From Minisyncoccota bacterium (lineage in GTDB: Bacteria > Patescibacteriota > Minisyncoccia > Moranbacterales > UBA1568), in NCBI GenBank assembly GCA_051306005.1, contig JBPPMJ010000003.1, positions 409,144-473,143 of the forward strand: DNA of 64,000 nt. Reading direction: 5' to 3'. Below, in pieces: positions 4,326 through 63,675 of the stretch. The position numbers and the translations under genes are program-made. Positions within the stretch are counted from its first letter, which is position 1. Each line of letters opens with the position of its first letter. Below the pieces are notes generated by a model, which saw nothing but the letters and a program-made list of their open reading frames with translations, was not told where the DNA came from and ran no database searches.

Positions 4326-4389
4326 TGTAGACACATTCAAAACACTTTGCAACCAAAAGACGGATTTGAAAGAATATGCCTCTATCAGG

Positions 4390-4395
4390 TATAAT
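4390..4395 (+). promoter_or_regulatory. TATAAT -10 box about 10 nt upstream of the ATG at 4405, in the divergent intergenic region
   Basis: Exact tataat at 4390-4395 in the ~80 bp gap between the divergent genes. Confidence 0.3.
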
Positions 4396-4404
4396 GAATC
4401 CATT

Positions 4405-9316: not shown

Positions 9317-9442
9317 TTATTTTCTCAAAAAACCTTCTATAACACAAGAATTTTAACACAGATATCATATCTTGGCAAGTCTTCGACTGTCCGCATATCC
9401 ATACCATTTTCTTCAATGCATCAGAAAAGCTTCACTCTTAAT

Positions 9443-10558
9443 CTACCTCAAAATAGTCTCAAGCGTTTTTTTGGCACATCTATCCCAGGAAAATTGTTGC
9501 AATTGTGCGTGTCCTCTCTTAGTCAATTCAGTACGCAACTCAGTGTCACTCCACAGGTGCTCCATTTTTTCCGCTATATCTTCCACGGACAAAGCATTGA
9601 CATATAATCCGGCACGTCCGCCTACTTCACGCAAACTGGAATTGCTTGCGAGCAATACCGGCACCGAAGAAGCGAAAGCCTCCAAAACAGGTAGCCCAAA
9701 ACCCTCATACAATGATGGGAACACAAAAAATCTTGCTGCCTGATACAGTACACGCACTGTTTCAAAAGAAACACGTCCAGTCAAAATAATATCATTCGCA
9801 TAAGGACTTTCTTTACAGAGACGAATAATATCACGTGATAACCATGCAGATTCTCCTGCCAATACAAGTTTCATCTCAAACATACTTTGTTTGGCGATAT
9901 GAAATGCCTCGATCAAGCGTATAAGATTTTTTCGTGGTTGCAAAGCACCAACATACAACATGTAAGCATCTGGAGTCAACGCATAAGGAGTCAGTGTCTG
10001 TTGTATCGTTTCAACGGAACAACGTTGTCCGAAAAACTCACCATCAAATCCATGATGAATGACTGTGATACGATTTTCTGGCAGATGTGGAAAAAATGTG
10101 AGCAAATCGTCTTTGGTGGATTGCGAAACAGCAATCAGTTTATCGGCTCGTGCGACCACGGTATTCAGTAAGATATTTAATTTCATTTGATCTTTTGTTG
10201 GAAATGTTTCTGGGTAGTGTTTGAAAGCAAGATCATGAATAGTAGCCGTGACATTGCTATGGCGTGGTATCCAAATCGGCGCTGCCTGAATCGGCAAAAA
10301 AACCCGATCCGGACGATCCCGAAATAATTCTAAGGTAAAACGGGTTTGCATCCAAGCAACAGGAAAAGGACACTGCCTCTCCGTATAATTCGTAAAAATT
10401 GGGGGTGCCAATACAGGATTGAACGTATCACGATGATAAAGAATAAATTGATTCCATGTGTCCAGCACACCAAAATATTTCAGCAATTGTTTTATGTAGA
10501 CACGTGTCCCATCGATACGCTGATGATCCAAATCTGATGCTTGTATGGCGATACGCAT
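9443..10558 (-). CDS. glycosyltransferase family 4
   Basis: 371 aa with the typical C-terminal GT4 motif region ...FVFPSLYEGFGLPVLEAFASSVPVL.... Confidence 0.8.
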   Translation of the reverse strand: MRIAIQASDLDHQRIDGTRVYIKQLLKYFGVLDTWNQFILYHRDTFNPVLAPPIFTNYTERQCPFPVAWMQTRFTLELFRDRPDRVFLPIQAAPIWIPRHSNVTATIHDLAFKHYPETFPTKDQMKLNILLNTVVARADKLIAVSQSTKDDLLTFFPHLPENRITVIHHGFDGEFFGQRCSVETIQQTLTPYALTPDAYMLYVGALQPRKNLIRLIEAFHIAKQSMFEMKLVLAGESAWLSRDIIRLCKESPYANDIILTGRVSFETVRVLYQAARFFVFPSLYEGFGLPVLEAFASSVPVLLASNSSLREVGGRAGLYVNALSVEDIAEKMEHLWSDTELRTELTKRGHAQLQQFSWDRCAKKTLETILR

Positions 10559-14942: not shown

Positions 14943-17582
14943 TTACTTCTTTTTTTTGACTGCTTTTTCCGTAAAGGTAATTTTTTCTTTTTTCATATCC
15001 ACTTCAATACTCTCTCCACTGTGCACTTTTTTCTCCAAAATTTCAAGTGCCAAGGGATCAAGAAGCATGTTTTGGATCACTCGACGTAATGGCCGTGCCC
15101 CATAGAGCGGGTCAAATCCGATCTTGGCAAGATGTACACGCAGTGCGTCAGAAAAAATCAATTTTATATCCCGCTCTTGCAGGCGTCTAGCCACCATATC
15201 CAACTGCACATCCACGATTTGTCGCAACATTGCCGGCGACAAAGAATGAAAAAGCACAATTTCATCAATACGGTTTAAAAACTCAGGGCGGAACGTCTCA
15301 CGTAAACTCGTCAAAATACGATCACGAATTTCTTTTTCAGAAACCACACTATCATTTTCTTGCTCTTCTTTGAATCCAAGGGTCTGGGCTCGTACCAAAA
15401 TTTCCGAACCAACATTAGAAGTCAAAATAATGACTGTATTTTTGAAATTCACGGTACGTCCTTTAGCATCCGTCAAACGCCCATCATCAAGAATCTGCAA
15501 CAAAATATTGAACACACTTGGATGTGCCTTCTCAATCTCATCAAACAAAATAACACTATACGGTCGACGACGGATACGTTCGGTTAATTGCCCACCTTCT
15601 TCATAACCAACATAGCCTGGCGGTGAACCAATCAACTTTGCCGTCGAATGGGATTCCATATATTCCGACATATCTATACGAACCAATGCCTTTTCATCAT
15701 CAAACAAAAATTCCGCTAAAACCTTGGCGAGTTCAGTCTTACCTACACCTGTCATCCCGAGAAAAATAAATGATCCGATCGGACGTGTTTCTTCCGCCAG
15801 TCCGGCCCGAGAGCGACGAATGGCGTTGGCAACGGTATTGATTGCTTCATCCTGTCCAATGACTCGTTTTTGAAGCGCTTTTTCCATAGTAATCAACTTC
15901 TCTGACTCCTTTTCCAGCATCTTGGCTACAGGAACACCTGTCGCCCGTGATACTACGAATGCAATATCCTCTTCAGTAATTTCCTCTTTCAAAATAAATC
16001 CGGTTTTCTGTAAATTTTCCAGTTTTTTTTCTTCATCACGGATATGTTTTTCTAGTTCTGGAATCTTTCCATAACGAATTTCCGCCACGCGATCCAACTC
16101 GCCATTCCGCTCTGCCATTTCAGCTTCTGATTTAAGTTTATCTTTTTCCGCCTTATGCTCACGGGATGTCATAATCAATTCACGTTCAGAACGCCACTGC
16201 AAAGACAACTTTTGTGATTGTTCTTTTAGCGTTGCCAATTCCTGATCAATGGTTTCAATTTTCTTTTTGTTCTGCGTATCATTTTCTTTGGATAATGCTC
16301 GTTTTTCAATTTCCAAACGACGAATGCTACGCTCCATCTGATCCAGCTCCGTCGGCATCGAATCAATCTCCATTCTTCGTAAAGAAGCTGCCTCATCCAC
16401 CAAATCAATTGCCTTGTCAGGCAAAAAACGATCATTAATATAACGACAAGAAAGTTTGACCGCGGCAATCAAAGCATCGTCAGTTATTTTGACGCCATGA
16501 TGCAAAGCATACTTTTCCTTGATACCACGCAAAATGGCAATCGCATCTTCTTCCGATGGCTCACTCACATACACCGGCTGAAAACGTCGCTCTAAAGCTG
16601 CGTCCTTTTCAATATATTTTTGATACTCTTTGAGTGTCGTGGCCCCGATGGCACGCAATTTACCTCGTGCTAATGCTGGTTTCAACATATTAGAAGCATC
16701 TAAAGACCCCTCAGTCGCCCCAGCTCCAACCAACGTGTGAAGCTCGTCAATAAACAAAATACAACGATCAGCCGAACGCTCCACTTCTTTCAAAATTGCT
16801 TTCAACCGTTCCTCAAATTCACCACGAAACTTGGCACCGGCTAACAATGAACCAAGATCCAAAGAAATAACCTCTTTGTTTTTCAAATTTTCCGGAACGT
16901 CTCCTGCCACAATACGTTGTGCCAATCCCTCGACGATTGCTGTTTTTCCAGTGCCTGCCTCCCCAATCAAAACAGGATTATTCTTGGTGCGACGAGATAA
17001 GACCTGCATCACACGCCGTATCTCTTCATCTCGCCCGATGACTGGATCCAGCTTGTCTTCACGCGCCAACTGAGTGATATTGATTGCGTATTTTTCCAAC
17101 GCTCGATAGGTCTGTTCTGGTTCCTGGTTTTCCACTTGCTGAGTCCCCCGTACTTGTGACAAAATTTTCAAAACCGCATCATACTGAATACCAGCCTCAT
17201 GCAACAATTTCGTCACTGGATGCGTTATCGTCAAAAGTGCCAAAAGCATATGTTCTGTTGAAACGAAACTGTCACCTATTTTTTGCATTTCCTTTTCCGT
17301 AGTGTTGAACACCTGCACCAAAACAGGAGACACAGAAATTTGTCCCACTGATCCCGTCTCACCCTGCGGCAAATGATCCATTGTATCTGCAACCTTCCCT
17401 TTCAGTTTTTCGATATCAACCTGTAACTTCCCAAGAATGACCGGAATAATGGAATCAGCTTGCATGAGTAACGCATATAGCAGATGCGCGACATCCATTT
17501 GTGAATTGCTTCGTGATAAGGCGATTTCCTGAGCGTTTTTCAACGCTTCCTGACTCTTAAGAGTCAATTTATTAAAATCCAT
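14943..17582 (-). CDS. clpB: ATP-dependent chaperone ClpB
   Basis: N-domain ([14 protein letters not shown]...), D1 ([15 protein letters not shown]), a long coiled-coil M-domain and D2 ([19 protein letters not shown]). The start was set at the Met matching the ClpB N-terminus. Confidence 0.92.
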
Positions 17583-17683
17583 AGAGTTTGTTTGTTCAAC
17601 AAATAAATAAGAGATACCAAACATTATTTCTCATTTTTTGTCTGCTGTTTCTCTTTTGTTAAGAATATCATATATCTAAAAAA

Positions 17684-28644: not shown

Positions 28645-30537
28645 TCACCCTTTCTCTGCAACATCAGCCTCTTCCAAAATAGCCTTTATTCTTCTGATAC
28701 CCCCTGATGAAGCTTCCTCTTTAAGGATTCTAAAATGTCCCAAATCACCCGTACTGGTCACATGAGGTCCACCACAAAACTCCAGACTGAATTCACCAAT
28801 CTTATAGACTCGAACACGATCTCCATATTTTTCTTCAAATAATCCAATCGCTCCACGTTTTTCCGCTTCTGCTAATGGAAGATCTATGTAACTCACGGGT
28901 AATTTCTCGGAAATTTTCTGATTCACGAGCGCTTCCACGGCAGATTTTTCCGCGTCAGTCATTTTGGTAGGATGTGAAAAATCAAAACGCAAACGTTCTG
29001 GTGTAATATTGCTCCCTTTTTGAAAAACATGGCTTCCCAATACTGTACGCAATGCTTGTTGCAGAAGATGCGTAGCAGTATGATATTTCACTGACATCGC
29101 ACTTGTATCTGCCAGGCCACCTTTGAACTTACCTTGACTCGCAGTGCGTGATAATGCTTGATGCTTCGTGAATTCCTCTTGAAACACTTGTATGTCAAAT
29201 GATAGTCCTCTTTCTTGTGCGATTTCCTGAGTCATTTCCAGAGGAAATCCATACGTCGTAAACAATTCAAAAGCATCTTTTCCGGAAAAAACTCCAGACA
29301 AACACCGTTTCTCCAATTCTCGCATTCCACGTGTCAATGTTTCACGAAACTTCACTTCTTCAGCATCGATAATTGCGGTAATTTCTGAAACTTTTTCTCC
29401 TAACATAGGGAAAACTCCCCGATATTGCTCCACCACGGCCATCGTCAATACCACCAAAGATCTGGGATCAGTAATCGCTAAAGTGTCGGCAAAACGCACT
29501 GCTCGACGAAGTAAGCGTCGTAATACGTATCCTTGATCAGCATTGCTTGGTCGAACACCATCAGACACCAGAAAAACACCCGCACGTATATGATCCATCA
29601 CCACTCGAAAAGCGTAGGTGTATTGAGGGTTTTCCCCATACCGTTTCCCTGATAATGTCTCAATACTTTGACGTAATTGCATAAAAAGAGGTCCAGAAAA
29701 TATATCTGGATTATCCTGGACAGCAGCCATCATACGCTCCAGACCGCCACCAAAATCGACATTTTTCTGAATCAAACGTTCAAAACCAGCATCGGTTTTA
29801 CGATATTCCATAAACACATTGTTGCCTATTTCCATAAAACGTCCACAATCGCAATTCACATGACACGGACTTTCCCGCCAAACAGAATTTTCATGAAATG
29901 CTCTATCTAAACCAAAATCCCAGAACATTTCTGTATCTGGGCCACCTGGTTCACCTACTGGCATATTGGTAGGAACACCAGATCGACTCCACCAATTTTT
30001 GGATTCAGGATAATAAAAAATATGTTCTTCTGGACGGATACCTTCTTCCAAAGGGTGCAAACCAATCCGTACTTCCATCCCCCGTTTAGCAAATAATGCT
30101 TGCCACAAATCAGCCGACTCAGTATCACGTGGAATATCAAGAAGTTCATTTCCCTGAAAACAGGTAAAATACAAACGATGCGGATCTAGTTTGAGCGTTT
30201 CAGTCAAGAAAGTCCACATCCAAGTTATTTGTTCTTTTTTGAAATAATCTCCAAAGGACCAATTACCAAGCATTTCAAAAAATGTAGTGTGACGATTATC
30301 TCCCACTTCTTCCATATCTTGTGCACGAACACATTTTTGAGTATTCGCAATGCGTGTACCCAACGGATGCGGTGCACCCAAAAGGTACGGGATAATGGGT
30401 TGCATTCCGGAGCCAGTAAAGAGTGTCGTAGGATCATTTTCAGGCACCAAAGAAGCTGAAGGCACTACTATATGCCCTTTTTTTTGAAAAAAATCAAGGT
30501 ATTTCTGTCGCACACTTTGGACTATGTCAGTTCGCAT
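28645..30537 (-). CDS. alaS: alanyl-tRNA synthetase, truncated form (630 aa) lacking the C-terminal C-Ala/oligomerisation region
   Basis: Class II catalytic core and tRNA-recognition regions (...FTGSGMQP..., ...WSFGDYFK...), plus an editing-domain HxxxH-like region. The length is much shorter than the ~870-aa canonical AlaRS. Confidence 0.85.
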   Translation of the reverse strand: MRTDIVQSVRQKYLDFFQKKGHIVVPSASLVPENDPTTLFTGSGMQPIIPYLLGAPHPLGTRIANTQKCVRAQDMEEVGDNRHTTFFEMLGNWSFGDYFKKEQITWMWTFLTETLKLDPHRLYFTCFQGNELLDIPRDTESADLWQALFAKRGMEVRIGLHPLEEGIRPEEHIFYYPESKNWWSRSGVPTNMPVGEPGGPDTEMFWDFGLDRAFHENSVWRESPCHVNCDCGRFMEIGNNVFMEYRKTDAGFERLIQKNVDFGGGLERMMAAVQDNPDIFSGPLFMQLRQSIETLSGKRYGENPQYTYAFRVVMDHIRAGVFLVSDGVRPSNADQGYVLRRLLRRAVRFADTLAITDPRSLVVLTMAVVEQYRGVFPMLGEKVSEITAIIDAEEVKFRETLTRGMRELEKRCLSGVFSGKDAFELFTTYGFPLEMTQEIAQERGLSFDIQVFQEEFTKHQALSRTASQGKFKGGLADTSAMSVKYHTATHLLQQALRTVLGSHVFQKGSNITPERLRFDFSHPTKMTDAEKSAVEALVNQKISEKLPVSYIDLPLAEAEKRGAIGLFEEKYGDRVRVYKIGEFSLEFCGGPHVTSTGDLGHFRILKEEASSGGIRRIKAILEEADVAEKG

Positions 30538-30589: not shown

Positions 30590-30862
30590 TTAGAGTGTAT
30601 TCATCGCCTTTTTGGTGTGTGCAATCATCTCATCTAGACGTTCGATCTCTTTGCTCACCTGATGTTCTTCAGTTGTTTTGTCTTCAATGTTCGTTTTGAG
30701 ATGTTCGATTGTTAGGTGAAGGCGTCGTAATTCCGCTATCAAGTCAACTTGTTTGTGCATAAGGCGATTCCTGTCACTTTGCACACTCAAAAGATCCAAT
30801 TGTGCTCGTCGCACTTTTGCTTGATGCAAGGCCTTTTCTTCATTCGTCAACCCATAGTCCAT
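30590..30862 (-). CDS. small coiled-coil protein (ZapB-like?)
   Basis: 90 aa with heptad-rich, all-helical predicted composition. It sits downstream of the ftsA-like cluster. Confidence 0.4.
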   Translation of the reverse strand: MDYGLTNEEKALHQAKVRRAQLDLLSVQSDRNRLMHKQVDLIAELRRLHLTIEHLKTNIEDKTTEEHQVSKEIERLDEMIAHTKKAMNTL

Positions 30863-30919
30863 ACGACTTTATGTCAAAACAATATTCAGAATAACACACT
30901 AATTGGCTACAAGAAAACA

Positions 30920-32878
30920 TTACTCTATCATCTCTCCCGACTCAACAAAAATGACGGTTCGACCAGATGATTTTGGCACACTCCGCATCAACCATTCAGG
31001 ATGAAAAGACACTCTCATTTTTTTCACTGCTGTCAATGTGGGAAGCATATCTTGCAATGCTTGTTCATCTTTCCCAAGTAAGGATTCCTTGATACGCTCA
31101 TTATCAATAACTGATTCCATGGTCACTAGAGCGCGAACTTTTAGCCGAACCGTACCAGTTGTGAAATCAGGCAGAGAATCATCGTAAGCCAAAAGAGAAG
31201 AAACCGGATGAAAAGGTACGCCTTGCAACTCCTTATTCACAACATTTTCAACTTTCTCGTGTATTTGCTCTTCAGGAAAAATAAAAGCCTGAATCTTAAA
31301 CGTATTTTGATACTCAATCATATTGGCAACCATCCCTATCTGTGGACCAGCCACTGGTTGCAGAGCCGTCACATCCATCTGTTCTTCCAATATTTTTTCA
31401 TCCTCTTTAAGTGTACCACGTGCTTCACGTAAAAATTCTTCTTTCGCTTTTTCACGCGCTTCACGTTCCGCAGTTTCCAAATCCACTCTGGCAACAACAG
31501 ATACATCAGATAATCCTTCATTACCACCACCCAGCATCGTCTTTTTTGATTGCACGGTAAAAGCATCATACTTTGGGTTACCTTTAAAACCAGGAATGTG
31601 AAAGGTGGTTGGTTCAATATTATATACTTCACCAGATTGGTCAGCAATCACCTCAGCCTCAATCACTCCCGCGCTAGATCCCGTCATCCCTGGTACTGTC
31701 ACACTTTTGACAAGACGAAAGAGTTTGCCATCAGATGTTTCAAAACGTGTGGTCGCAACAAGCGTTTGCGGTTCAGTACTATAATTATTGGAAATGATTA
31801 CAGTACCACGCGCTTTCTGGTTTACGCTACTAGATTTTCCAGTTGCAGGTACTGCAACTGATATTGGGTACTCGCGTGCAAAAATTCGCACCATTAGCAT
31901 ATCGGCACTGGTCACCGTGCTCCCAGAAGATTGACCATTCAGTGTAATATCAACAGGTTGTGTAATACGATACGGTGTCAGATGTATTTCCGCTTTCGGT
32001 ACAAATAGAAACAATCCGACACCCACCACTGACAACAACGTCGCCGTGCCGAGAATCGCCAAAATAAAATGCATCTTCTTACCAGACCCGGAAACAGCGG
32101 AATTGATTAAAGGTGCAGGTTTCGCAGAAGTTGGTGTAGGTGATATATCCTGATTATTATAAAAATTCTTCAAGCGATTACTTCGAGATATTTCTGTTTC
32201 AGCCACAGTGGGTGTCGGTGGAACAGGAGCCAAGCGATCTCTAGACGCCGGTACAAAAGCCGGAATTCCAGATGAATTTGATACTGGCAACGGAGGGTGT
32301 TTCACATATTCGGACTGAGAACGCAATGAATTCAAGCTAGTCATTTTTTCTGGAGTCATATTACGTACCCGCAATTTTTTTGGATCATCACGCTTCATCA
32401 TCGGTTGTGCCAGGGCCGTCTGTTTGGACAAACGTCTTTCTTGAGTATCGGGCGTCACATAAAAATCTTGGCTACCAATCATATCAACGCGAACGCCAAA
32501 TGGTGAGTGCGGAGTAAAGGCTTCTGGAGGTATCTGTAAGGGCTTCATTTCTTCTGTCGGTATTGTCTCTTCATATACTTCCGTTGCCAAACGTTCATCA
32601 GAGTAATTTTCTGTCGCGATGCCCGCCTTAGTTGCCAACATACGCCCCATATCATCCTGCGTCACAACCATAATGCCTTTGCTCATTTTCTGCGCCTCCC
32701 GTTGCAACAAACGTAAATTAACAATACTTTGCAATACCAAGGCACGCTTAGGAAACACGAATATATTTTCTGTATCGGAAGATTTCCGTAAACGCCCTAT
32801 AACGGAAATGATTTCTTCATCAGAATCGATATAAAAAGTTTTTGCCATAAGGGTAAAATTTTTTTTATTGTTTTTCAA
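30920..32878 (-). CDS. bitopic membrane protein, translationally coupled to the ftsA-like gene
   Basis: 652 aa. It has a cytoplasmic N-domain, a Pro/Ser-rich linker, a single TM (MHFILAILGTATLLSVVGVGLFLFVP) and a ~340-aa extracytoplasmic domain. Its start overlaps the ftsA stop by 14 nt. Confidence 0.55.
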   Translation of the reverse strand: MKNNKKNFTLMAKTFYIDSDEEIISVIGRLRKSSDTENIFVFPKRALVLQSIVNLRLLQREAQKMSKGIMVVTQDDMGRMLATKAGIATENYSDERLATEVYEETIPTEEMKPLQIPPEAFTPHSPFGVRVDMIGSQDFYVTPDTQERRLSKQTALAQPMMKRDDPKKLRVRNMTPEKMTSLNSLRSQSEYVKHPPLPVSNSSGIPAFVPASRDRLAPVPPTPTVAETEISRSNRLKNFYNNQDISPTPTSAKPAPLINSAVSGSGKKMHFILAILGTATLLSVVGVGLFLFVPKAEIHLTPYRITQPVDITLNGQSSGSTVTSADMLMVRIFAREYPISVAVPATGKSSSVNQKARGTVIISNNYSTEPQTLVATTRFETSDGKLFRLVKSVTVPGMTGSSAGVIEAEVIADQSGEVYNIEPTTFHIPGFKGNPKYDAFTVQSKKTMLGGGNEGLSDVSVVARVDLETAEREAREKAKEEFLREARGTLKEDEKILEEQMDVTALQPVAGPQIGMVANMIEYQNTFKIQAFIFPEEQIHEKVENVVNKELQGVPFHPVSSLLAYDDSLPDFTTGTVRLKVRALVTMESVIDNERIKESLLGKDEQALQDMLPTLTAVKKMRVSFHPEWLMRSVPKSSGRTVIFVESGEMIE

Positions 32879-34178
32879 TGGTTTCTAAGCTACGACGTAA
32901 AATTCCTGACAACATTTTTTCTTCATCAACATAATCCAGCAAAGCAAGATTGGCCAAACCAAGTGGAGTAATGTCTTGTGGATTGGTTAGTTCTCCAGTT
33001 ATATCTGTCATACGAGCAATATCTTTTGGTTGTAAAAAACTCACTTGTATTTCCTTGGTAAAAGGCAAGTTGGCACTACGCCATTCCTGAGAAAGCAGAG
33101 ACTGCTTGATACCCGGTAAGGCTGATCCGCCACCGCACAAAAAAATACGGGATGGTAAAATGTCTGTCGCTGCAAATTCCAACAAAGAAAGTTCAACGCC
33201 ACCAAGCCAGATACGACAGTCATCACTATACAGGGCACTGATACGATCTGTTTCTGATTGACTCAAACGCCCATGCGCATAATCTAACTTAAGTTTTTCC
33301 GCCACATCCAAACTGAGTTGCAATTCCTGTGCCAAACGCTTCGTAAAAGCTAGACCCCCCAAAGCGAACATTTTAGTCCCTTCCAGACCACCGTTGCGCA
33401 CCACGGCAATGTCGGTAGTACCGCCTCCAACATCAATAAAAATAGCATTGAAATCCAAAATATCTTCCACCTCAACGGATCGTGCCACAGCATATGGTTC
33501 CGCGGCAATGGAAATCAGATCCAAATCAAGTTCATCTGCGATAGTCTGCAAGGCACCAAGATGAATCATCGGCGCATAAGCATTAAACACGCTCATCGAA
33601 ACGTCTCTACCCTGAAAGTTAATCGGCTTAGAGACATGATATCCATCAATGCGCACATCAACAATAGCTGCATTAATGAGCTTCACATCAATATCATCCT
33701 GCCCTGTTTCCCAAGAAAGTTGATGTTTAATACGTTGATACGCTTTTTCCTGGACTTTTTGAATAATCATTTTTATCTCGGCCAACCCAATACGCACTTC
33801 TGCATTCACCCGCTCATAATGGACAGTGGTCGTAGTTCCTTTGACTAGTTCACCAGCAATACCGATAATACTTTTTTCCACCCGTTTGACACCAGCCTTT
33901 TTCTTCGCAAGCGTAATAGCTTCACGTGCCGACACAATCACACCGCCGATATCAGCGACCGCTCCACTTTGCATATTACCAGTACGCTGTGCCACCCTCC
34001 CCACGCCGATGACGACACCGGTTTTTTGCTCACGATCAACTCGAAAAATCAATGCCTTGACCACTTCAGTACCAATATCCAAAGCGAGCACCAAATCAGT
34101 TTCCCGCCTCCAAAAAAGTTTTGAAAAAAGACCCATAGAAAATAGCTGTTTGTTTTCTTTTACTATTATACTACACAT
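32865..34178 (-). CDS. ftsA: actin-like ATPase, FtsA family (cell division)
   Basis: LALDIGTEVVKALI (phosphate 1), IFIDVGGGTTDIAV (phosphate 2), FLCGGGSALPGI (adenosine motif), and a 1C-like insertion. 437 aa. Confidence 0.7.
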   Translation of the reverse strand: MCSIIVKENKQLFSMGLFSKLFWRRETDLVLALDIGTEVVKALIFRVDREQKTGVVIGVGRVAQRTGNMQSGAVADIGGVIVSAREAITLAKKKAGVKRVEKSIIGIAGELVKGTTTTVHYERVNAEVRIGLAEIKMIIQKVQEKAYQRIKHQLSWETGQDDIDVKLINAAIVDVRIDGYHVSKPINFQGRDVSMSVFNAYAPMIHLGALQTIADELDLDLISIAAEPYAVARSVEVEDILDFNAIFIDVGGGTTDIAVVRNGGLEGTKMFALGGLAFTKRLAQELQLSLDVAEKLKLDYAHGRLSQSETDRISALYSDDCRIWLGGVELSLLEFAATDILPSRIFLCGGGSALPGIKQSLLSQEWRSANLPFTKEIQVSFLQPKDIARMTDITGELTNPQDITPLGLANLALLDYVDEEKMLSGILRRSLETIEKQ

Positions 34179-37723: not shown

Positions 37724-38827
37724 TTAACCAGCACCAAGGATCGCGATGACCACTCCAATCAACGCAGTCAAAGTGGTCACAATCCATGCCCGCATAACAA
37801 TCTTGGGTTCTTGCCACCCCTTAGCTTCGAAATGATGGTGGATAGGTGCGGCCAAGAAAATTTTCCGCTTCCAGAAACGCTTACTTATCAATTGCAACGC
37901 CACGCTTCCAGATTCTATAACATAAATAAAAACAATAATAAACAAAACAAGTGCGGAATTAGTCAACATAGCAACCACGCCTAAGGTAGTACCCAAAGAA
38001 ATGGCCCCTGTGTCCCCCATAAAAAAACGAGCCGGATAAATATTGAACCAGAGGAACGCTAATAGCGCTCCAGATATAGCTGCGCACAGAGCAGACAAAT
38101 CCATCTTATTCTGACTAAAAGCAATAATGGCAAAGGCATTAAAAGCAATCAATAACACTCCTCCATTCAGACCATCTAGTCCATCTGTTTCATTGGAAGA
38201 AATCGCGGTAAATAAAATAACAAAAAGGAACAGTGGCACATACCACAAGCCAATAGAAAAATCTCCAATAGCGGGAATATGAATACGGTCCCAGCCCAAT
38301 TTGTCATAAAACCACCAAGCACCAGACCCTGCAATAACAAACAACCACCAAAAACGCAAAGCGAAACGCATACCACCACCCTTATTGGCACCTTTGCCCC
38401 GAACACTCATATAATCATCAAACAATCCCAATATACCTGCTGTGACCAAGACGAACAACGGCAACCATACTTGAGATCGTTTGAAAAAATCGAGACGGGC
38501 AATGAAGTTGGTATCAGTCCATAACGCGATAAACGGAAACACATAATGAGAGAATAAAACGAGCAGTAATACCGAGACCCAGACGATGACTCCACCCATC
38601 GTCGGAGTTCCAGCCTTGGAAGCATGAAGTGTGTTTACTACTGACAGCTTATCTCCACTAACGGACGTCTGTTTAATTCTGATACCAATGCGATATTGAT
38701 ACAATATATGTGTCCACAATGGCGTCAAAACAAAAGCCAACAAAAACCCAAGAAGTCCCGTTGTTAGAATCTTGAGAACATCAATCACTACTGGCAAACT
38801 CTGTACTTGTGCTATTTGTATTTCCAT
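37724..38827 (-). CDS. mraY: phospho-N-acetylmuramoyl-pentapeptide transferase MraY
   Basis: About 10 TM helices, with ...NAFAIIAFSQN... and the FMGDTGAISLG motif. The start was set at the internal Met to avoid overlapping dacC. Confidence 0.85.
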   Translation of the reverse strand: MEIQIAQVQSLPVVIDVLKILTTGLLGFLLAFVLTPLWTHILYQYRIGIRIKQTSVSGDKLSVVNTLHASKAGTPTMGGVIVWVSVLLLVLFSHYVFPFIALWTDTNFIARLDFFKRSQVWLPLFVLVTAGILGLFDDYMSVRGKGANKGGGMRFALRFWWLFVIAGSGAWWFYDKLGWDRIHIPAIGDFSIGLWYVPLFLFVILFTAISSNETDGLDGLNGGVLLIAFNAFAIIAFSQNKMDLSALCAAISGALLAFLWFNIYPARFFMGDTGAISLGTTLGVVAMLTNSALVLFIIVFIYVIESGSVALQLISKRFWKRKIFLAAPIHHHFEAKGWQEPKIVMRAWIVTTLTALIGVVIAILGAG

Positions 38828-38849
38828 AGAAGAAATGTTCAAAGATAAG

Positions 38850-39875
38850 CTACTGCCAATCAATCGCTTGAAAACTCCAATCCAACATAGACCGGATACT
38901 TTGCCAACGATACGGATCATTCAATAAAACGGCGATGACTCGATGTTGACGTGTGTCATCCGAAGCGACTGCCAAGAGCGAATACCCGGCAAGAGGCGTA
39001 AAGCCGGTCTTGGTACCGAGTAAATTCGGAAATTGCCCTAACAATTCATCGGTGTTAAAAATCTCATGATTATACTTGTTATCGCGTGAAGTAATAAACG
39101 TTTTTTCCATTTGCATTATGTCCCACAAAATTGGATATTGCAACGAATGAGCGGTGAGTATGGCCACATCACGAGCCGAAGAGTAACACTCTGTCTCGCG
39201 CCCATCAGGCTCCAATCCAGAGGGCGTACAAAAATGCGTATTTTGAAGTCCCAATTCTTGTACCCGCTGGTTCATAATTTTTGCGAAACCATCTTGCGTG
39301 CCTCCGATGTGCTTCCCCAGCGCGATAGCGGCGTCATTAGCACTATTCATGAGTGCTGCTTTCAAAAGGTCCCGCACCCGCACCTGCTCACCCATTTTGA
39401 AACGTTCACCATTACAAAATCCAGAACGAGGGCAACCCACTCGGGTTCCAGGCGCATAAATAGCCTCCTCGTCAATCGTCACCCATTCATCCAAATTATG
39501 TACGCGTTCTACAACCAATGTGGCAGTAAACAGTTTAGTCAAGGAAGCAATCTGTCGTTGCATATCAGCATTTTTCTCATACAATACCTTTCCAGAATCA
39601 GCATCCAAAATCAAGGAGGAGTGTGCAGTCATGATACTCAAGGTCGGTGCGTATGGTTTCATGTGTGGCAAGAAACCAGCCGTCAAAGCGCGACTCTCCG
39701 AAACAAAAGGCGCTGTCACGTCAATATCCGATACTCGTAAATCCTCAAAACGTTGTTTCTCTGTCGGAAATAAATTCAATACACTGGCATCGCGCGTTTC
39801 AAAACCACCAGCTTGATTTATAACAAACAAAGAGGTGCTAATAAAAATGCTACTAAAAAATAAAAGTTTGCGCAT
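38850..39875 (-). CDS. D-alanyl-D-alanine carboxypeptidase (peptidase S11, PBP5/6-like)
   Basis: SxxK (ASLTK), SxN (NSAND) and KTG (KTGFT) motifs, and an N-terminal signal/TM. Confidence 0.85.
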   Translation of the reverse strand: MRKLLFFSSIFISTSLFVINQAGGFETRDASVLNLFPTEKQRFEDLRVSDIDVTAPFVSESRALTAGFLPHMKPYAPTLSIMTAHSSLILDADSGKVLYEKNADMQRQIASLTKLFTATLVVERVHNLDEWVTIDEEAIYAPGTRVGCPRSGFCNGERFKMGEQVRVRDLLKAALMNSANDAAIALGKHIGGTQDGFAKIMNQRVQELGLQNTHFCTPSGLEPDGRETECYSSARDVAILTAHSLQYPILWDIMQMEKTFITSRDNKYNHEIFNTDELLGQFPNLLGTKTGFTPLAGYSLLAVASDDTRQHRVIAVLLNDPYRWQSIRSMLDWSFQAIDWQ

Positions 39876-39886
39876 ACTGATATATC

Positions 39887-40486
39887 TTATGCGAGAGAGG
39901 TAGTTGGCTGTTCTTCATCACTGGCTTCTACACGGGTTTCTTCTTCCAAAAGCGCCGTCAAACGATGATCGCGTGATAATACATCATAATCAGGCAAAGC
40001 TCGAATATGCGCTATCCCGATGGACTCCAAAAAATGAAAGGTTGGTCGATACACATATCCACGTACGTCGCCTGGATCGCCAACACGTTCTATCAAGTCA
40101 CGTAATAAAAGATTACGAATAGTGAAACTACAGTTTACGCCCCGAATAGTGTCTATTTCATGGCGCGTGATAGGAGCGCGATAGGCAATAATAGATAACA
40201 CCTCCAACGCCGTTTTGCTCAATTTTTCTTGCAAAGCACTTTTGGTCAACGCCTCCACCCAGGCGGCGTTTTCCGGTTTGGTGGCAAGCTCTATTTTGTT
40301 ATCATTGATGATCACCATCAGTCCAGATTGTGTGTCTGCAAGATATTTTTCACCCAAAGTTTGAGCGGCCTGCACAACCGTATCCACTTCTGTTTCCAAT
40401 ATCTTGGACAAAGCAGTAAACGTCAGGGGCGATCCGCTCATAAATAATAACGATTCCAGTGCCGAGAGTAAAGAAGAAAATGGCAT
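39887..40486 (-). CDS. scpB: segregation and condensation protein B
   Basis: Tandem wHTH (...ALESLLFMSGSPLTF... and ...YRAPITRHEIDTIRGVN...). Confidence 0.8.
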   Translation of the reverse strand: MPFSSLLSALESLLFMSGSPLTFTALSKILETEVDTVVQAAQTLGEKYLADTQSGLMVIINDNKIELATKPENAAWVEALTKSALQEKLSKTALEVLSIIAYRAPITRHEIDTIRGVNCSFTIRNLLLRDLIERVGDPGDVRGYVYRPTFHFLESIGIAHIRALPDYDVLSRDHRLTALLEEETRVEASDEEQPTTSLA

Positions 40487-40493
40487 ACAGTGC

Positions 40494-41195
40494 TTATGAA
40501 TGTTGAATAAAGATATCGCTAAAAAAACGCTCTTGATTGACACATACTATGCGTTGCTTCACCATCTCCAAGACTGCCAAAAAAGAAACGATAACCTCAT
40601 GCCGATAAAGAGCTCCTCGCGTCAACTCCGCAAAGGATGTCTCCACACGCTCTGCCAACGTTTTTTGGAGAGACACAATCATCTCTTCCAAGGATATGAT
40701 TTGGTGTAAAACTTGCTCTGGTAGGGCTTCCATCACTGGAATATCCCCCAGCACATCAACGAAATGTTGGTGTAATTCCGAAACAGTCAATCCCTTGGAT
40801 GGATAAAACGTCACCCGTACACCCAAAAAACTTTCTCGACTCTTGGCAACGTGATGTCGTTCAAAAAGACGTCCCAACACCTCTGATGCTTCACGAAAAC
40901 GCTGATATTCTCTAAGACGCACCTCCAAATCCTCCATCGATTCATTCTCTTCATCGCTAAATTCCAAAACAGGCAACAACGCGCGAGACTTGATCAAAAT
41001 CAGACGAGCAGCAATCATCAAAAAAGACGAGAGATTAGCCAGAGAAATGTTTTTTTCTTGTCGTAGGTATTGCAAATATTGATCGGCAACCTTGGCAAGA
41101 CTCACCTGAGTCACATCCAATTTTTCCTTTTCAATCAAGGAAAGTAATAGGTTCAGTGGTCCCTCAAATTGTTCCAACCGAATATGATATGCCAT
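40494..41195 (-). CDS. scpA: segregation and condensation protein A (kleisin)
   Basis: MAYHIRLEQFEGPLNLLLSLIEKEKLDV..., the ScpA N-terminus. It is immediately upstream of scpB. Confidence 0.85.
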   Translation of the reverse strand: MAYHIRLEQFEGPLNLLLSLIEKEKLDVTQVSLAKVADQYLQYLRQEKNISLANLSSFLMIAARLILIKSRALLPVLEFSDEENESMEDLEVRLREYQRFREASEVLGRLFERHHVAKSRESFLGVRVTFYPSKGLTVSELHQHFVDVLGDIPVMEALPEQVLHQIISLEEMIVSLQKTLAERVETSFAELTRGALYRHEVIVSFLAVLEMVKQRIVCVNQERFFSDIFIQHS

Positions 41196-41297
41196 AAGAA
41201 AAAACATCAAACTTGCCAATCAATTTCTCTCAGAATAGCATTATTTATCCAGCACGACAACTCCTTTCCATTATTCTTTTCTCCCACTCAAACAGTC

Positions 41298-50496: not shown

Positions 50497-52533
50497 CTAC
50501 TCCCGATTTGATTTCGTTTCGTTTAGCAAAGAACGCACTTCGTCAAGGTTGACAGAAGGTCGATGTCTGAGAGTTTTAAATTTTTTTGGTCCGATGTGTT
50601 GTGCGTCTCTCAAAGAAATCGGTTTCTCCGTCATCACGTAGGACTTGGGCGTGGTCAAAGACGCGGGTACAGCAGAAACTGGCGCACTCTGTGTTTGTTT
50701 GACCAGAGGCGCGGATAGAGTATGTTGTGCTGTAACTTCATTACGTGCTTTGGCGACCGACCGCTGATATTCACGCAAACAGTCTTTGCAAAATGTCGGA
50801 CGCTTGGCATCCGGTATGAAGGGTACTTGAATCTCAATGCCACAACTGGCGCATTGAGCTGGATACAATACTTTTTCCGATAATACCGAAGCTGGCGTTG
50901 ACTGCTCAACGGTCTCTGTTGCCTGACGTGCTGGTCGCGTCGCTGGTGATACGGATTGTTGGGGCGACTCTGATACTTCCAAAGAAAGCAATGACGTACG
51001 TTTTGGCGCCAACGGTGGTTCAAATGGTGCCAACAAAGGCACGTCGTCTGATGAGGATACTGGCGCGACAGCAGGAGAAGCTAAACGATGATGAGATGTC
51101 ACAATCCGGTTATTGACATGTGGTGCAACGTCTCGGGCGTGGTGTTCCGCATGTGATGGAATAGATGCGCGTGATATCGGAACGGATTTTTTCATCGGAA
51201 CTTCTGTTTTAGGCACTTGTTCCGCGATTGCTTGACGTTCTTGGGCAGTCAACATTCCACTCCATCGACGAATCTTTTCTTCAACTTCAACACGACTTGA
51301 AGCATAGCGCTCTCGAGAACTTTGAATGATTTTAGCTTCGTTAGCAACCGCTTCCAGGGCAATCGGCGGGAGTGTTGTCGCAGAAAAAGCATCTCCCGCG
51401 ATACCGTCGATCATAAGTTTGAGATAAATCTCATATTTCGGCAAATTGATAATATCATTCATAACGAAAACGGGCGCAAACTCTTTTTCCAAAAATTCCG
51501 CATCAGTCGCGCCAACCCGAAACGAAATAATAGTGCCGGCATTACCAAAAATGGCATCCCGCACCTTCTCATCAATTTGCGTCACGTACTGATTGGCAAG
51601 AATCAAATTGAGATGATACTTACGAGCTTCAGAAAGGATATTCGCAAAAGACTCCGTAGCAAAGTTTTGAAACTCATCGACATACAGATAGAAATCTTTG
51701 CGTTCATCTTCTGGCATATCCACTCGTCCCATCGCCGCGAGTTGAATCTTGGTAATCATCATGGCACCCAACAAAGCACCGTTGTCTTCTCCGATACGTC
51801 CTTTGGCAAGATTGATAATCAAAATCTTTTGTCCATCCATGACGTCACGAATATCAAACGATGAAACTGTCTGACCAACGATATTACGAATCAGGGAACT
51901 TGAAAGAAATTGTCCCACCTTGTTTTGAATCGGTGAAATGACTTCCTGGAGTACACGGTCGTTCCATTGAGAAAATTCATCTATCCAAAAGGCACGCACG
52001 ACAGGGTCGGTCACTTTTTCCACGATACGAGCTCGATAAGCCTTGTCAACCAAAATACGCGTTACACCAAGGAGTGTCGTACCAGGGTATTCCAACAAGG
52101 CGAGCAACGCATTACGTAAAATATATTCCAAACGAGGCCCCCAAGAATCTGCCCAAATTTTCTTGAACACACCGATAAGGCCCGAAGCAACCAGATGCCG
52201 GTATTCCGGATCGACTTTTTCCATGACATTGAATGCGAGAGGGAAGTCTTGATCAGCAGGATTGAGATAAATCACGTCATTGATACGATGGGCAGGAATG
52301 GCTTTGATGAGTTTTTCCGCCGTGTCACCGTGTGGATCAATAAAAGCGATACCATGTCCTTTTTGAATATCCTGAATCGCCAGATTCTCCAGGAGATTGG
52401 TCTTACCCATACCGGTCTTGCCGATAACATACATATGTCGCCGACGATCATCCACTTTGATACCAAACACTTGCTCCTTATTCCGAAAATTTGTTTTGGC
52501 AAAAAAACTGATTTCATCTTGATTGTGCGACAT
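50497..52533 (-). CDS. type IV coupling protein-like ATPase (VirD4/TraD/TrwB family), cytoplasmic, with a C-terminal zinc ribbon
   Basis: Walker A GKTGMGKTN, Walker B LYVDEFQNF, and a TraD/TrwB-like all-alpha insertion. There are no N-terminal TM helices. The C-terminal ~250 aa are low-complexity (S/P/A-rich) and end in CASCGIEIQ...CKDC (CxxC-N17-CxxC). Confidence 0.7.
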   Translation of the reverse strand: MSHNQDEISFFAKTNFRNKEQVFGIKVDDRRRHMYVIGKTGMGKTNLLENLAIQDIQKGHGIAFIDPHGDTAEKLIKAIPAHRINDVIYLNPADQDFPLAFNVMEKVDPEYRHLVASGLIGVFKKIWADSWGPRLEYILRNALLALLEYPGTTLLGVTRILVDKAYRARIVEKVTDPVVRAFWIDEFSQWNDRVLQEVISPIQNKVGQFLSSSLIRNIVGQTVSSFDIRDVMDGQKILIINLAKGRIGEDNGALLGAMMITKIQLAAMGRVDMPEDERKDFYLYVDEFQNFATESFANILSEARKYHLNLILANQYVTQIDEKVRDAIFGNAGTIISFRVGATDAEFLEKEFAPVFVMNDIINLPKYEIYLKLMIDGIAGDAFSATTLPPIALEAVANEAKIIQSSRERYASSRVEVEEKIRRWSGMLTAQERQAIAEQVPKTEVPMKKSVPISRASIPSHAEHHARDVAPHVNNRIVTSHHRLASPAVAPVSSSDDVPLLAPFEPPLAPKRTSLLSLEVSESPQQSVSPATRPARQATETVEQSTPASVLSEKVLYPAQCASCGIEIQVPFIPDAKRPTFCKDCLREYQRSVAKARNEVTAQHTLSAPLVKQTQSAPVSAVPASLTTPKSYVMTEKPISLRDAQHIGPKKFKTLRHRPSVNLDEVRSLLNETKSNRE

Positions 52534-52545
52534 AGTCTCTGTATC

Positions 52546-53847
52546 TTAAAGATTTTGGATTGGTAAATTGGCAGGTGCACTACCACGTTTGGCTGTCACT
52601 CGAGTGAGCGCCGGTGCCGTCACTGACATATCAGGAATATGAAACACGGTCGCCAATTCTTCCGAACTGAGCAAGAAACGAGTATGCTGAGGATCGGTAT
52701 CACGATTGATATATCGACGCAGTATCTGGCGCTGATAAAAACGCAGTCTTTTTTGAACAAAAAGATATTTTGCATCAGTTTTCGTATTATTCAACGGTTT
52801 GAAACCATTGAGATTTTGATCAGAAAACTGCTTCAAACCTCCGACAAAAGCGGAAACGCCCGTCATCTTGTTAAAAATACCCCGTCTTCCAATATAGACA
52901 TAACGCATACGAACCTTGAACATCTGTTTACCAAGATTATTTTCCAAGGCTTTCAAAACATCTTTTTCACCCGGTGTCAGACGAAATTCCACTGGTGCCT
53001 CATCTTTTTTTTCAGCTTTAGCGCCCGTTGAAAATGTGGTTTCCCCTCCCGTCAAGCCACGGCCAATGTTGGCAAAAACATCTATGAAATCCATAAACAA
53101 ACGCATCAAAATTCCCATCTTCTTTTCTTTAACTTTTCCCAAAAAAGTATCGATGGTTCCTCTGCCTGTTTTATACCAATCTTCTTTGACGGGCGTAATG
53201 GTGTACTGTAGCCACAAATGTTGTCCAGGGCCGGCGGTTCCCATAGTCTCAAACAAGCCTGCCAATGGATCTATCATCGTTCCCGTTACCGTTTCTTCAA
53301 AAAATTTGTATGTTTTGATAGGATACAGATCCTCCTTAACCAGTCCAAAGTCCGCACCCCATATATCCCAATCTTTGTTGGGAATCGTTTTCGGTATGTT
53401 CTTCACATAATCTGGCACTTCTACAATTTCCACACCAGGATACTGTGCATAAAAATGCGCTTCCACTAGATTACGAAAACCCGTCTGTGTCCGCACATAC
53501 ATATGCGTCGTTCCATTGGTACTGGCAATTTCCAATGAAAATGAAACTGGTAACTCTCCAATAATCCACTGCTCTGATGTGTTTGGCGATTTCAAAACAC
53601 CAGATAGCCCTGAAAAAATAGATTCCATGGGCTGAGGGCTTTTTTCAATATCCCGCGGAGGGATAATTTCCAACAACACCCACGTTATCTTGGAAGCAAA
53701 TTTTCCTTGAACATGGTCTTCCCAAAGAATTTTGAAGAGAAACAACAGAAAGGGAGGGAGAATAAAAAACCAAAGCACGGAAGCAACGGAAAATACCGTT
53801 GTCATCAGGGAAAAAATGTTGATGAAATCAGCGAAAAGAGTATTCAT
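52546..53847 (-). CDS. membrane protein partner of the T4CP-like ATPase
   Basis: 433 aa with two N-terminal TM helices and a large soluble domain. Its stop is 13 nt from the start of the ATPase gene. Confidence 0.5.
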   Translation of the reverse strand: MNTLFADFINIFSLMTTVFSVASVLWFFILPPFLLFLFKILWEDHVQGKFASKITWVLLEIIPPRDIEKSPQPMESIFSGLSGVLKSPNTSEQWIIGELPVSFSLEIASTNGTTHMYVRTQTGFRNLVEAHFYAQYPGVEIVEVPDYVKNIPKTIPNKDWDIWGADFGLVKEDLYPIKTYKFFEETVTGTMIDPLAGLFETMGTAGPGQHLWLQYTITPVKEDWYKTGRGTIDTFLGKVKEKKMGILMRLFMDFIDVFANIGRGLTGGETTFSTGAKAEKKDEAPVEFRLTPGEKDVLKALENNLGKQMFKVRMRYVYIGRRGIFNKMTGVSAFVGGLKQFSDQNLNGFKPLNNTKTDAKYLFVQKRLRFYQRQILRRYINRDTDPQHTRFLLSSEELATVFHIPDMSVTAPALTRVTAKRGSAPANLPIQNL

Positions 53848-53920: not shown

Positions 53921-55012
53921 TTATTTCTTGAGAGTGTAGGTATGCTTGCCCACGCGCTCAAAAAACATGTTCAGATTGATAATAATAGTGGATTGCTTCA
54001 CTTGACGCACTTGCAACACCGCTTGAATCGCTTCATCTCGAGACAGGGGTCTTGTTGATTTTCGAAGTAGCTCGTGCAAAACATCCTTAACGGTGCCTTT
54101 GGAATATCCCCATTCGGACAAAGCATATACTCCGCGTCCCACCAAAACGAAACATTCATCTTTAATCAATTCATTATGTACTGTTTGTGGATGACTCTGG
54201 CGCTTTTTTCCTCGGTGTAATCCATGACTGTCGATTTTTTCTGCGATTTCACGAAAATGCATCGGTGTACCAGACATTTTCAAAACCAAACGCGCTTTCT
54301 CCCGAGTACCACGCGGTTTAATATCACCCCACGCACTGAGACCCCATTGACCAAAAACATTCTGACGAATACCTTTGGCAACCGCCAAAAAATCAAAGAG
54401 TTTTTGGCGATCAGCTGAACCGTGCGTCTCAGTAAAACGTGTGAACAAGGTATCGGCATCTAACGCATGTCCAAACTCTCGCAAAATAAACTCAATATCC
54501 GCAATAACCTTCTGCCATTGCGCAAAGGAAAAATTTGGTGTCGTGTATACTTTCTCACGTTCCGTGGTACCTTTGTGTTCTCGGATAGCAAGAGTACACT
54601 CGACAAAAACAGACAGTGCCCCATGTTCTCGCCCACCTTGTGGTGCAAGAATGTCAAACAACTCTACTGCTTTTATGATACCACTTTTTTTCTCAAGAGT
54701 CGATTGGATACGTGACACAGCGGAAAGGAATGATGGATGTTCACCTTTTTCGCCCAAGGATATCAATGCGCTTCCGATGACCTGGCGCACACGCTCCCGT
54801 GTTACATGATATGTTTGGCCGATTTCTTCCAACGTTTTGGGCATTTCTCCCGTCAAGCCAAAACGCGCCGATACAATTTCACGTGAACGTGGAGAAAGAC
54901 ATACCAAAAACTCCTCCAGGCGCGAGGCAAAGAATGGTTTTTCCGTAACAACGGCGGAACGCTTTTTGGTTGGTGGCAAGTTACGTACGGACATATTATA
55001 CAAATTCAACAA
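53921..55012 (-). CDS. transcription factor with an N-terminal sigma-70 region 4 and a C-terminal HARE-HTH domain
   Basis: Region 4.2-like LSPRSREIVSARFGL...TLEEIGQTYHVTRERVRQV. The C-terminal MHFREIAEKI...LIKDECFVLVGRGVYALSEWGY resembles the RpoE(delta)-type HARE-HTH. There are no sigma regions 1-3. Confidence 0.6.
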   Translation of the reverse strand: MLNLYNMSVRNLPPTKKRSAVVTEKPFFASRLEEFLVCLSPRSREIVSARFGLTGEMPKTLEEIGQTYHVTRERVRQVIGSALISLGEKGEHPSFLSAVSRIQSTLEKKSGIIKAVELFDILAPQGGREHGALSVFVECTLAIREHKGTTEREKVYTTPNFSFAQWQKVIADIEFILREFGHALDADTLFTRFTETHGSADRQKLFDFLAVAKGIRQNVFGQWGLSAWGDIKPRGTREKARLVLKMSGTPMHFREIAEKIDSHGLHRGKKRQSHPQTVHNELIKDECFVLVGRGVYALSEWGYSKGTVKDVLHELLRKSTRPLSRDEAIQAVLQVRQVKQSTIIINLNMFFERVGKHTYTLKK

Positions 55013-59932: not shown

Positions 59933-60861
59933 ACAGCGTATCTTTCCAAGATATCTACTTTAATTTCTCGTAACAGTTTTGGATGGTCTTTTAGACTACA
60001 GAAATCTACAACTACATGTTTCAGATATTCTTGATCGTACTCATAGGTACTGAGCTTTATCTTATCTTGTTCTAAAACAGTCCGAACAAGATTGACTACC
60101 TCATTAAAACTATGAATAATTGGTTTTTTGAGCCCCTTACTAGCGAAGTAGCTTTTTCTAGCTAGTAATCTACCGTCCTCAACACTTTTGGTCAAATATT
60201 TGCATAGATACTTAATCAGACCAGACTCACTTCTTACCGACTCCACCTGAGCAGTTCCCTCGCCGACACCTTTGCGCCATTCGTCTCGCATTTTGTCATA
60301 GATCCTGTCTATCCAGGGCAGATTGAAGAAAATGACATGGTAATGAATTGCTCCACGATTCTGAAATTCTACGACTGCTAAATATTTCAGAAATGTCATT
60401 TTGCCTCGAATATCGTAGCCCAATCTACGGATGAAATTGGTGAATTCATTGTGAGCGTACGTTAGATCGGTGACATTTTCCCGAAAAGTAAAAGTGATGA
60501 AAATCGGTAGATAGGGTTGGCCACCTCGCTTATACCATTGCCATGCATTACAAAGAATAAGATCTGTAATGGTATTTTTAGCTCGCTTCATACTCTTCAG
60601 ACGTATTTCTTTTGGAGTCAGTTTTTCCTTATCAACTTTTTCGGTATCACCACTTTTTCTAATTCTACTTCGTTTGCCAATCATACGATCACGTTCATAG
60701 TGGGATAGCTCCAAGTAGAAACCACAAAGCTTTACTCGTTGATTAGAAAAATATACGGTCGATTCACAATTATCAAAACTTTGAGGGATGTCCGGATTGA
60801 GCATAAGGAATGAAAGAGTAGCTATCGCATTAAGTGATGCTTTAAATAAATATAACGACAA
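59929..60861 (-). CDS. rolling-circle replication initiator (HUH endonuclease, two-Tyr superfamily)
   Basis: Motif 1 FITFTF, motif 2 HYHVIFF (HUH), and motif 3 KYLCKYLTK (YxxKYxxK). Its stop overlaps the recombinase start (ATGA). The ORF-track start is a TTG at 60861, and the first ATG is at 60804. Confidence 0.75.
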   Translation of the reverse strand: MSLYLFKASLNAIATLSFLMLNPDIPQSFDNCESTVYFSNQRVKLCGFYLELSHYERDRMIGKRSRIRKSGDTEKVDKEKLTPKEIRLKSMKRAKNTITDLILCNAWQWYKRGGQPYLPIFITFTFRENVTDLTYAHNEFTNFIRRLGYDIRGKMTFLKYLAVVEFQNRGAIHYHVIFFNLPWIDRIYDKMRDEWRKGVGEGTAQVESVRSESGLIKYLCKYLTKSVEDGRLLARKSYFASKGLKKPIIHSFNEVVNLVRTVLEQDKIKLSTYEYDQEYLKHVVVDFCSLKDHPKLLREIKVDILERYAV

Positions 60862-60908
60862 GAGGCAGACGTCTACCGCTAAGGCGGTAGCCGATCTGCC
60901 TGCTTGTC
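60857..60908. repeat. imperfect 23-25 bp inverted repeat with a taag loop at the 5' end of rep (candidate dso or recombination site)
   Basis: GACAAGAGGCAGACGTCTACCGC taag GCGGTAGCCGATCTGCCTGCTTGTC, with about 18 of 23 positions paired. Confidence 0.6.
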
Positions 60909-63666: not shown

Positions 63667-63675
63667 TGTCTGCTG

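Follow-up and report, generated by a model that had tools for sequence, protein, structure and literature searches.

The question raised by this locus is what an FtsA-like gene does where no ftsZ stands beside it and a gene for a large membrane protein follows it. The locus lies in a 64 kb stretch of DNA (the window) from a metagenome-assembled genome (MAG) of a member of the Minisyncoccota, of Moranbacteria type within the candidate phyla radiation (CPR; Patescibacteria), and comprises three co-directional minus-strand open reading frames (ORFs) at 30590–34178, which encode an FtsA-family actin-like ATPase, a bitopic membrane protein and a 90-aa protein. A preliminary description of this DNA, made from the sequence alone, had placed three genes there and proposed a non-canonical cytoskeletal or divisome module; the ORFs confirmed the position, and the label is a fair one for an ATPase that is not a textbook FtsA, is never found beside ftsZ in ~90 loci and forms a conserved unit with a bitopic protein. 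Our comparisons showed that the first two genes are a conserved module of Moranbacteria/Paceibacteria-type CPR bacteria, which the third gene joins in part of the clade. On balance, the best explanation of the pair is an FtsA-class ATPase that would dock directly on its bitopic partner.

The FtsA-like gene occupies 32865..34136 (minus strand, stop codon included) and encodes 423 aa (MGLFSKL...) from an ATG at 34136, not from 34178, as judged by database entries and the N-termini of homologues; its product is identical to P0121, which NCBI lists as ‘cell division FtsA domain-containing protein’. The membrane-protein gene (30920..32848, minus strand, stop codon included) starts at the ATG at 32848 (MAKTFYIDSDEEI...) and encodes 642 aa, identical to P0001 (ACSLEX_02895, NCBI ‘hypothetical protein [Minisyncoccota bacterium]’, encoded on a 494-kb contig); this start is given by the NCBI record and by all homologues, the N-termini of which read M-x-Q-T-F-Y-I. 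The same evidence excluded the TTG start at 32878 that a mechanical ORF list gives for a 652-aa protein; that list has 437 aa for the FtsA-like ORF and makes the two ORFs overlap by 14 nt, and the gene lengths first reported were corrected accordingly to 423 aa and 642 aa. The FtsA-like stop codon (32865–32867) is separated from the membrane-protein ATG by a 16-nt gap, and across related loci the gap measures 1–173 nt (median ~20 nt) with an overlap in 0 of 73, so that tight co-directional linkage of the pair is supported, and the translational coupling through overlapping stop and start codons first proposed is not. The short gaps between the three genes contained no terminator-like sites, all matches in the span falling within coding sequence, and the promoter/terminator scan returned counts near the shuffled expectation and was hence uninformative.

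At E<=1e-3 the large partner family has 6224 representatives (50% clusters), and at E<=1e-30 it still has 771. When a single genome of each GTDB species was scanned with one N-terminal peptide pattern, 211 loci were recovered, the best 80 of which came from MAGs of Moraniibacteriota, Paceibacteria and the Parcubacteria group. Wherever a locus extended far enough upstream (~85 loci, with 80 from the one-per-species GTDB set), the FtsA-like gene immediately preceded the membrane-protein gene, and the same adjacency was found in loci reached from distant family members; the downstream neighbour of the pair varied (coiled coil/AlaRS, EF-Tu, infA, NusG). In agreement with the preliminary description, no ftsZ was detected by tblastn with E. 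coli FtsZ or by Pfam scans of the window, either in the 64 kb or within 10 kb in ~90 related loci, and tblastn with E. coli FtsA over the window and these loci returned the FtsA-like gene as the sole match. In one complete Moraniibacteriota genome (CP064994.1; locus L076, 8718–9979) the FtsA-like gene was recovered in two tblastn pieces (8718–9140 and 9143–9979), which represents a frameshift, possibly a sequencing error and otherwise a pseudogene. Many of the Moranbacteria-type GTDB MAGs (L008, L020–L023 and others) carry the title ‘uncultured Bdellovibrionales bacterium’, which looks like a third-party annotation (TPA) mislabel.

The actin-like protein belongs to the FtsA/PilM class, nearer FtsA, and falls below the curated definitions of both. 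In searches with profile hidden Markov models (HMMs) it matched Pfam FtsA (PF14450) at 5.8e-15 and the NCBIfam ftsA equivalog TIGR01174 with 96.5 bits, below the cut-off of 175.85, the latter match spanning only model positions 2–260 of 371 (protein aa 30–307); both the FtsA-family actin-fold identity and the caution that this is no textbook FtsA, as originally noted, were thereby upheld. Scores for Pfam PilM_2 (20.2 bits, cut-off 27) and NCBIfam TIGR01175 (pilM; 15 bits, cut-off 133) were under threshold, and a sequence search of the PDB retrieved Vibrio FtsA (2.4e-9) and Myxococcus xanthus PilM (2e-8). The AlphaFold2 (AF2) model (pLDDT 79, pTM 0.74) was searched with Foldseek, where the top 16 chains were all FtsA (5.5e-26 to ~5e-21, TM-score 0.60–0.77), led by the FtsA–FtsN peptide complex 7q6i (5.5e-26; TM-score 0.67–0.77 for FtsA structures), in near full-length alignments of 395–425 columns; mainly PilM followed (7.7e-21 to 1.4e-17; 5eox 7.7e-21, 2ych 1.7e-19), then EutJ and MreB (1e-13 to 1e-9). 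As in FtsA, the actin fold has subdomain 1C where 1B would otherwise stand: a 1C-type (SHS2-like) subdomain at aa 88–190 (33567..33875, minus strand) has the order beta-beta-alpha-beta-beta in the model and falls within the TIGR01174 match. All three nucleotide-binding motifs are invariant (phosphate-1 D20-G22-T23; phosphate-2 D235-G237-G238-G239-T240-D242; adenosine G335-G336-G337-S338), and both ends of the protein carry conserved motifs, MGxFSKL at the N-terminus and EEEKMLSxILRRSMESIEK in the C-terminal helix. This amphipathic helix (EEKMLSGILRRSLETIEKQ; 32868..32927, minus strand; helix 407–422 in the model, at low pLDDT), the motif of which is kept in 66 loci, is a candidate for membrane targeting or partner binding, and its high sequence conservation could equally reflect protein contact. 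Public annotation names the protein ‘FtsA’, ‘PilM’, ‘rod shape-determining protein’ or ‘hypothetical’ according to source.

With a median identity to relatives of 74–77%, the actin-like protein is conserved like MraY (77% in the same loci) and above L21 (68%), enolase (67%), PGK (60%) and AlaRS (55%). The 1C subdomain is among its best-conserved parts (46 of 103 columns invariant, mean major-residue frequency 0.87), and the 2B region, which in canonical FtsA is the FtsZ-binding subdomain (structure 4A2A), showed the lowest conservation among the folded regions (14 of 65 columns, 0.73). A homology search that started from the family's most divergent member (54% identity) returned matches only within the family.

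Hydropathy and the AF2 model (pLDDT 74 overall, >85 in folded parts) divided the 642-aa partner into four parts, and the bitopic layout suggested at the outset was borne out: a conserved N-domain, a Pro/Ser-rich segment, a single hydrophobic helix and a C-terminal domain of ~355 aa. The cytoplasmic N-terminal alpha/beta domain (aa 1–87; 32588..32848, minus strand) is STAS/receiver-like, (beta-alpha)4, and is the best-conserved part, with a mean pairwise identity of 0.60. It is followed by a disordered Pro/Ser-rich linker (aa 88–255; 32084..32587, minus strand; pLDDT <50, identity 0.22), the segment at aa 96–260 containing 14% Pro, and by a single transmembrane helix (aa 257–281; 32006..32080, minus strand; Kyte-Doolittle peak 2.33, a helix in the model, identity 0.32). 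The beta-rich extracytoplasmic domain (aa 285–642; 30923..31996, minus strand; identity 0.39) appears to have the fold of baseplate wedge proteins (Baseplate_J/gp6/gp47) and contains a conserved beta-barrel core (aa 337–441; 31526–31840, minus strand). The natural reading of the topology is N-in/C-out, since the protein lacks a signal peptide and has a folded N-domain.

The ectodomain is probably a homologue of the phage baseplate wedge (Baseplate_J) proteins and of the GlxA barrel. The PHROG profile phrog_6 (‘baseplate wedge subunit’) matched its core (aa 344–416) at 4.1e-7, four homologues carry a precomputed Pfam Baseplate_J match, and a weak Pfam GlxA match was present in 11 of 40 family members. 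The protein of the window itself gave no Pfam match over threshold, neither the Baseplate_J nor the GlxA gathering score being reached, and a profile search against PDB sequences found no relative. Unlike the baseplate wedge proteins (Baseplate_J, T4 gp6, Mu gp47) and the GlxA beta-barrel, the partner is a membrane-anchored protein of the cell. Its gene had housekeeping neighbours in all loci examined, and nearby there was no gene for a tail, sheath, spike or other baseplate part of a contractile tail or injection cluster.

Taken together, these features suggest a mechanism in which the actin-like protein would sit at the inner face of the membrane and dock on the STAS/receiver-like N-domain of its partner, probably through the conserved 1C surface, with the disordered Pro-rich tether and the single transmembrane helix joining that domain to the baseplate-wedge-like extracellular domain. 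ATP-dependent oligomerisation of the actin-like protein might then cluster or position the extracellular domains, following the logic of FtsA–FtsN, PilM–PilN and MreB–RodZ, with the coiled-coil protein as a possible bridge or bundling factor of the assembly in the cytoplasm. Direct contact is favoured because 1C is conserved, the partner N-domain is conserved, the tether is flexible and the adjacency is unbroken despite changing flanks; moreover, the partner N-domain is conserved far above linker and ectodomain, which would be expected if it contacts a highly conserved cytoplasmic protein. The pair probably connects the cell surface with a filament or oligomer in the cytoplasm. Its cellular role is probably in division or envelope organisation, as weakly suggested by the resemblance to FtsA and by mraY, a DacA-like penicillin-binding protein (PBP) gene and scpA/scpB, which often lie a few genes upstream of the pair.

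In a recurrent bacterial design, an actin-fold protein located at the membrane binds a bitopic protein at its cytoplasmic end. The pair resembles FtsA–FtsN (7q6i) in that a cytoplasmic actin-like protein with subdomain 1C, matched best by FtsA in both structure and HMM and carrying a C-terminal amphipathic helix, is paired with a single-pass protein having a large external domain. It differs in that the actin-like protein scores below the curated FtsA threshold, is encoded away from ftsZ and has a 1C far more conserved than 2B, and in that the partner possesses a folded STAS-like domain where FtsN has a short peptide, and a baseplate-wedge-like ectodomain where FtsN has SPOR. PilM–PilN (2ych, 5eou) shares the actin subclass and the position of the partner gene immediately downstream, and PilN too is bitopic and bound via its cytoplasmic N-terminus, a contact that is predicted for the present pair; in contrast, PilM HMM scores are far below cut-off, the annotated neighbourhoods contain no pilus genes, and the partner is ~3x larger, with different folds on both sides of the membrane. 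The layout of the partner, a folded cytoplasmic N-domain, disordered linker, one transmembrane helix and extracytoplasmic domain, is that of RodZ, where it couples an actin-like filament to the envelope. However, the actin-like protein is FtsA-class (MreB structures matched at ~1e-9, against 1e-25 for FtsA), and the N-domain is STAS/receiver-like, (beta-alpha)4, not the MreB-binding helix-turn-helix of RodZ.

Several observations weigh against a docked pair with a role in division or the envelope. What points to division is family resemblance and a loose neighbourhood only; AF2 confidence is low at both termini of the actin-like protein; and the correlation between the pairwise identities of the two proteins (rho 0.85–0.87) is not stronger with the N-domain than with the ectodomain, so that the correlation reflects shared phylogeny only. 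Conserved synteny in compact CPR genomes can also last without a functional link, and the upstream PGK, enolase and PfkB genes, clearly metabolic and with no evident link to the pair, are equally syntenic with it. Adjacency might then have no functional meaning, two unrelated conserved genes being held together by the frozen synteny of small genomes. We nevertheless consider this highly improbable, as the pair stays intact through at least four changes of the gene that follows it (coiled coil/AlaRS, EF-Tu, infA, NusG), and insertions split PfkB from enolase but never separate the pair in ~85 loci (gaps <=173 nt). Hardly more credible is the view that the pair serves a type IV pilus, or a fibre machine related to it, as a PilM-like platform in which the membrane protein would replace PilN/PilO, even though PilM structures rank a strong second in Foldseek (5eox, 2ych), M. 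xanthus PilM (2e-8) comes close to FtsA (2.4e-9) in the PDB sequence search, some members are named ‘pilus assembly protein PilM’ by NCBI, and PilM is known to bind a bitopic protein by the latter's cytoplasmic N-terminus. TIGR01175 reached 15 bits against a cut-off of 133 and PilM_2 20 bits against 27; no PilB, PilC, PilN, PilO or type IV pilin gene was found in five Pfam-annotated neighbourhoods (the pilins at locus L091 being of type IV secretion system (T4SS) type); and the partner has a folded 87-aa N-domain, not a short PilN-type peptide, and a baseplate-wedge-like ectodomain in place of the ferredoxin-like domains of PilN/PilO. The PilM/PilN identity that the preliminary description had offered as an alternative was thus rejected on HMM scores, on gene context in the five annotated neighbourhoods, on the lower rank of PilM in fold comparison and on the fold of the partner.

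Rather more serious, though still the less probable account, is the possibility that the actin-like protein is the sole FtsA of the organism and would tether FtsZ from a gene relocated away from ftsZ, the membrane protein being a lineage-specific late-divisome partner (FtsN/FtsQ-type) or a mere neighbour. FtsA is the best match by HMM (TIGR01174 96.5 bits, pilM 15 bits), by PDB sequence search and by fold; the conserved C-terminal amphipathic helix resembles the membrane-targeting sequence of FtsA; the dcw cluster is dispersed in this Moranbacteria-type lineage, with mraY alone beside PGK; JGI and Prokka-style annotation names the family ‘cell division protein FtsA’; and very high conservation fits an essential function. 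Yet the score is well under the equivalog cut-off and the HMM match runs only as far as position 260 of the 371 in the model; among the folded parts, conservation is lowest in 2B and among the highest in 1C. According to a survey of the genes around ftsZ, CPR bacteria generally keep FtsA, FtsW and FtsQ beside it, which was not shown for Moranbacteria (PMC9871819), yet there is no ftsZ within 10 kb in ~90 loci here, and the two observations together hint at a second, canonical ftsA elsewhere. We accordingly incline, by a modest degree, to a paralogous FtsA-class module with a canonical FtsA elsewhere in the genome. More speculatively, and with a rather low likelihood, the pair might form a CPR-specific trans-envelope machine in which a filament of an FtsA-class paralogue, separate from the FtsA acting with FtsZ, would organise an extracellular array of domesticated baseplate-wedge domains, for episymbiotic surface attachment or contact or as a new division or envelope scaffold.

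To our knowledge, almost nothing is known of the cell biology of CPR/Patescibacteria, and the literature searched gives neither a name nor a function for this pair, which is among the most conserved non-metabolic gene pairs of a very large CPR clade. What is new is best filed as an instance of the ‘actin-like ATPase plus bitopic partner’ design in which the partner has a STAS-like cytoplasmic domain and a baseplate-wedge-like ectodomain; the module would also be a case of a cellular membrane protein that has taken over a fold from phage baseplates. Were the protein the sole FtsA, division here would use an FtsA apart from ftsZ and tied to a new partner; were it a paralogue, the pair would represent a new actin-based envelope system. 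Either outcome offers a testable entry point, with two proteins and one predicted interface. Counts of ‘ftsA’ in surveys of CPR gene content may include this gene, because its annotations are inconsistent between sources.

The third gene of the locus (30590..30862, minus strand) is lineage-specific and encodes a 90-aa soluble coiled-coil protein with a continuous heptad pattern and no transmembrane segment. It is a real gene, since its core aligns nearly gap-free with the downstream ORF of 38 other loci, with the heptad pattern and a conserved KKxMNxL end. It is limited to the closer Moranbacteria, and infA, EF-Tu or NusG follows the pair in more distant loci. The preliminary description had called the product a ZapB-like coiled coil: the coiled coil is supported by the heptads, and the ZapB identity was dropped, as ZapB gave no match in Pfam or NCBIfam at E<=0.1, no other family matched and the coiled coil is generic.

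On the minus strand, the gene order around the locus is major facilitator superfamily (MFS) transporter, ScpA, ScpB, DacA-like PBP, MraY, phosphoglycerate kinase (PGK), enolase, PfkB kinase, FtsA-like protein, large membrane protein, 90-aa protein, alanyl-tRNA synthetase (AlaRS) and ribosomal protein L21. The isolated mraY gene lies 3.5 kb upstream of the FtsA-like gene; in the region 37724–41219 it scores 201.8 bits against TIGR00445 (cut-off 192) and stands alone between the DacA-like D-Ala-D-Ala carboxypeptidase gene and PGK. Upstream of the mraY and DacA-like genes are scpB and scpA, an arrangement kept in ~50 related loci. PfkB was considered as a member of the module and rejected: it is a generic ribokinase-family enzyme standing with PGK and enolase, insertions separate it from its upstream neighbours, and its position reflects conserved synteny only. 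At locus L091, five T4SS-pilin genes are inserted between enolase and PfkB. On the other side of the module, the AlaRS (28645–30537) is only 630 aa long, with catalytic and second-additional domains and no Pfam match to the C-terminal (DHHA1-type) domain.

Elsewhere in the window, the end region (58340–64000) is probably an integrated mobile element. A serine recombinase gene (58340–59932) and a Rep protein gene (REP_ORF2-G2P/RepSA; 59929–60861) stand beside tRNA-Gln (58409–58481), small ORFs without family matches follow Rep, and GC falls from ~0.43 to 0.365–0.38. At 50497–53847, a gene for a 678-aa VirD4/TrwB-like coupling ATPase with a treble-clef zinc finger adjoins a 433-aa ORF without a family match, representing conjugation/T4SS-type genes in a CPR genome. 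Two ClpB/Clp-type double-AAA+ genes (1812–4418 and 14943–17624) occur within 15 kb; the former, a mechanical ORF of 868 aa, showed no Clp_N or AAA_lid_9 matches, and its true start probably differs because the exact product is absent from the records. Finally, a 363-aa protein (53921–55012) combines sigma-70 region 4 and HARE-HTH domains, an unusual pairing.

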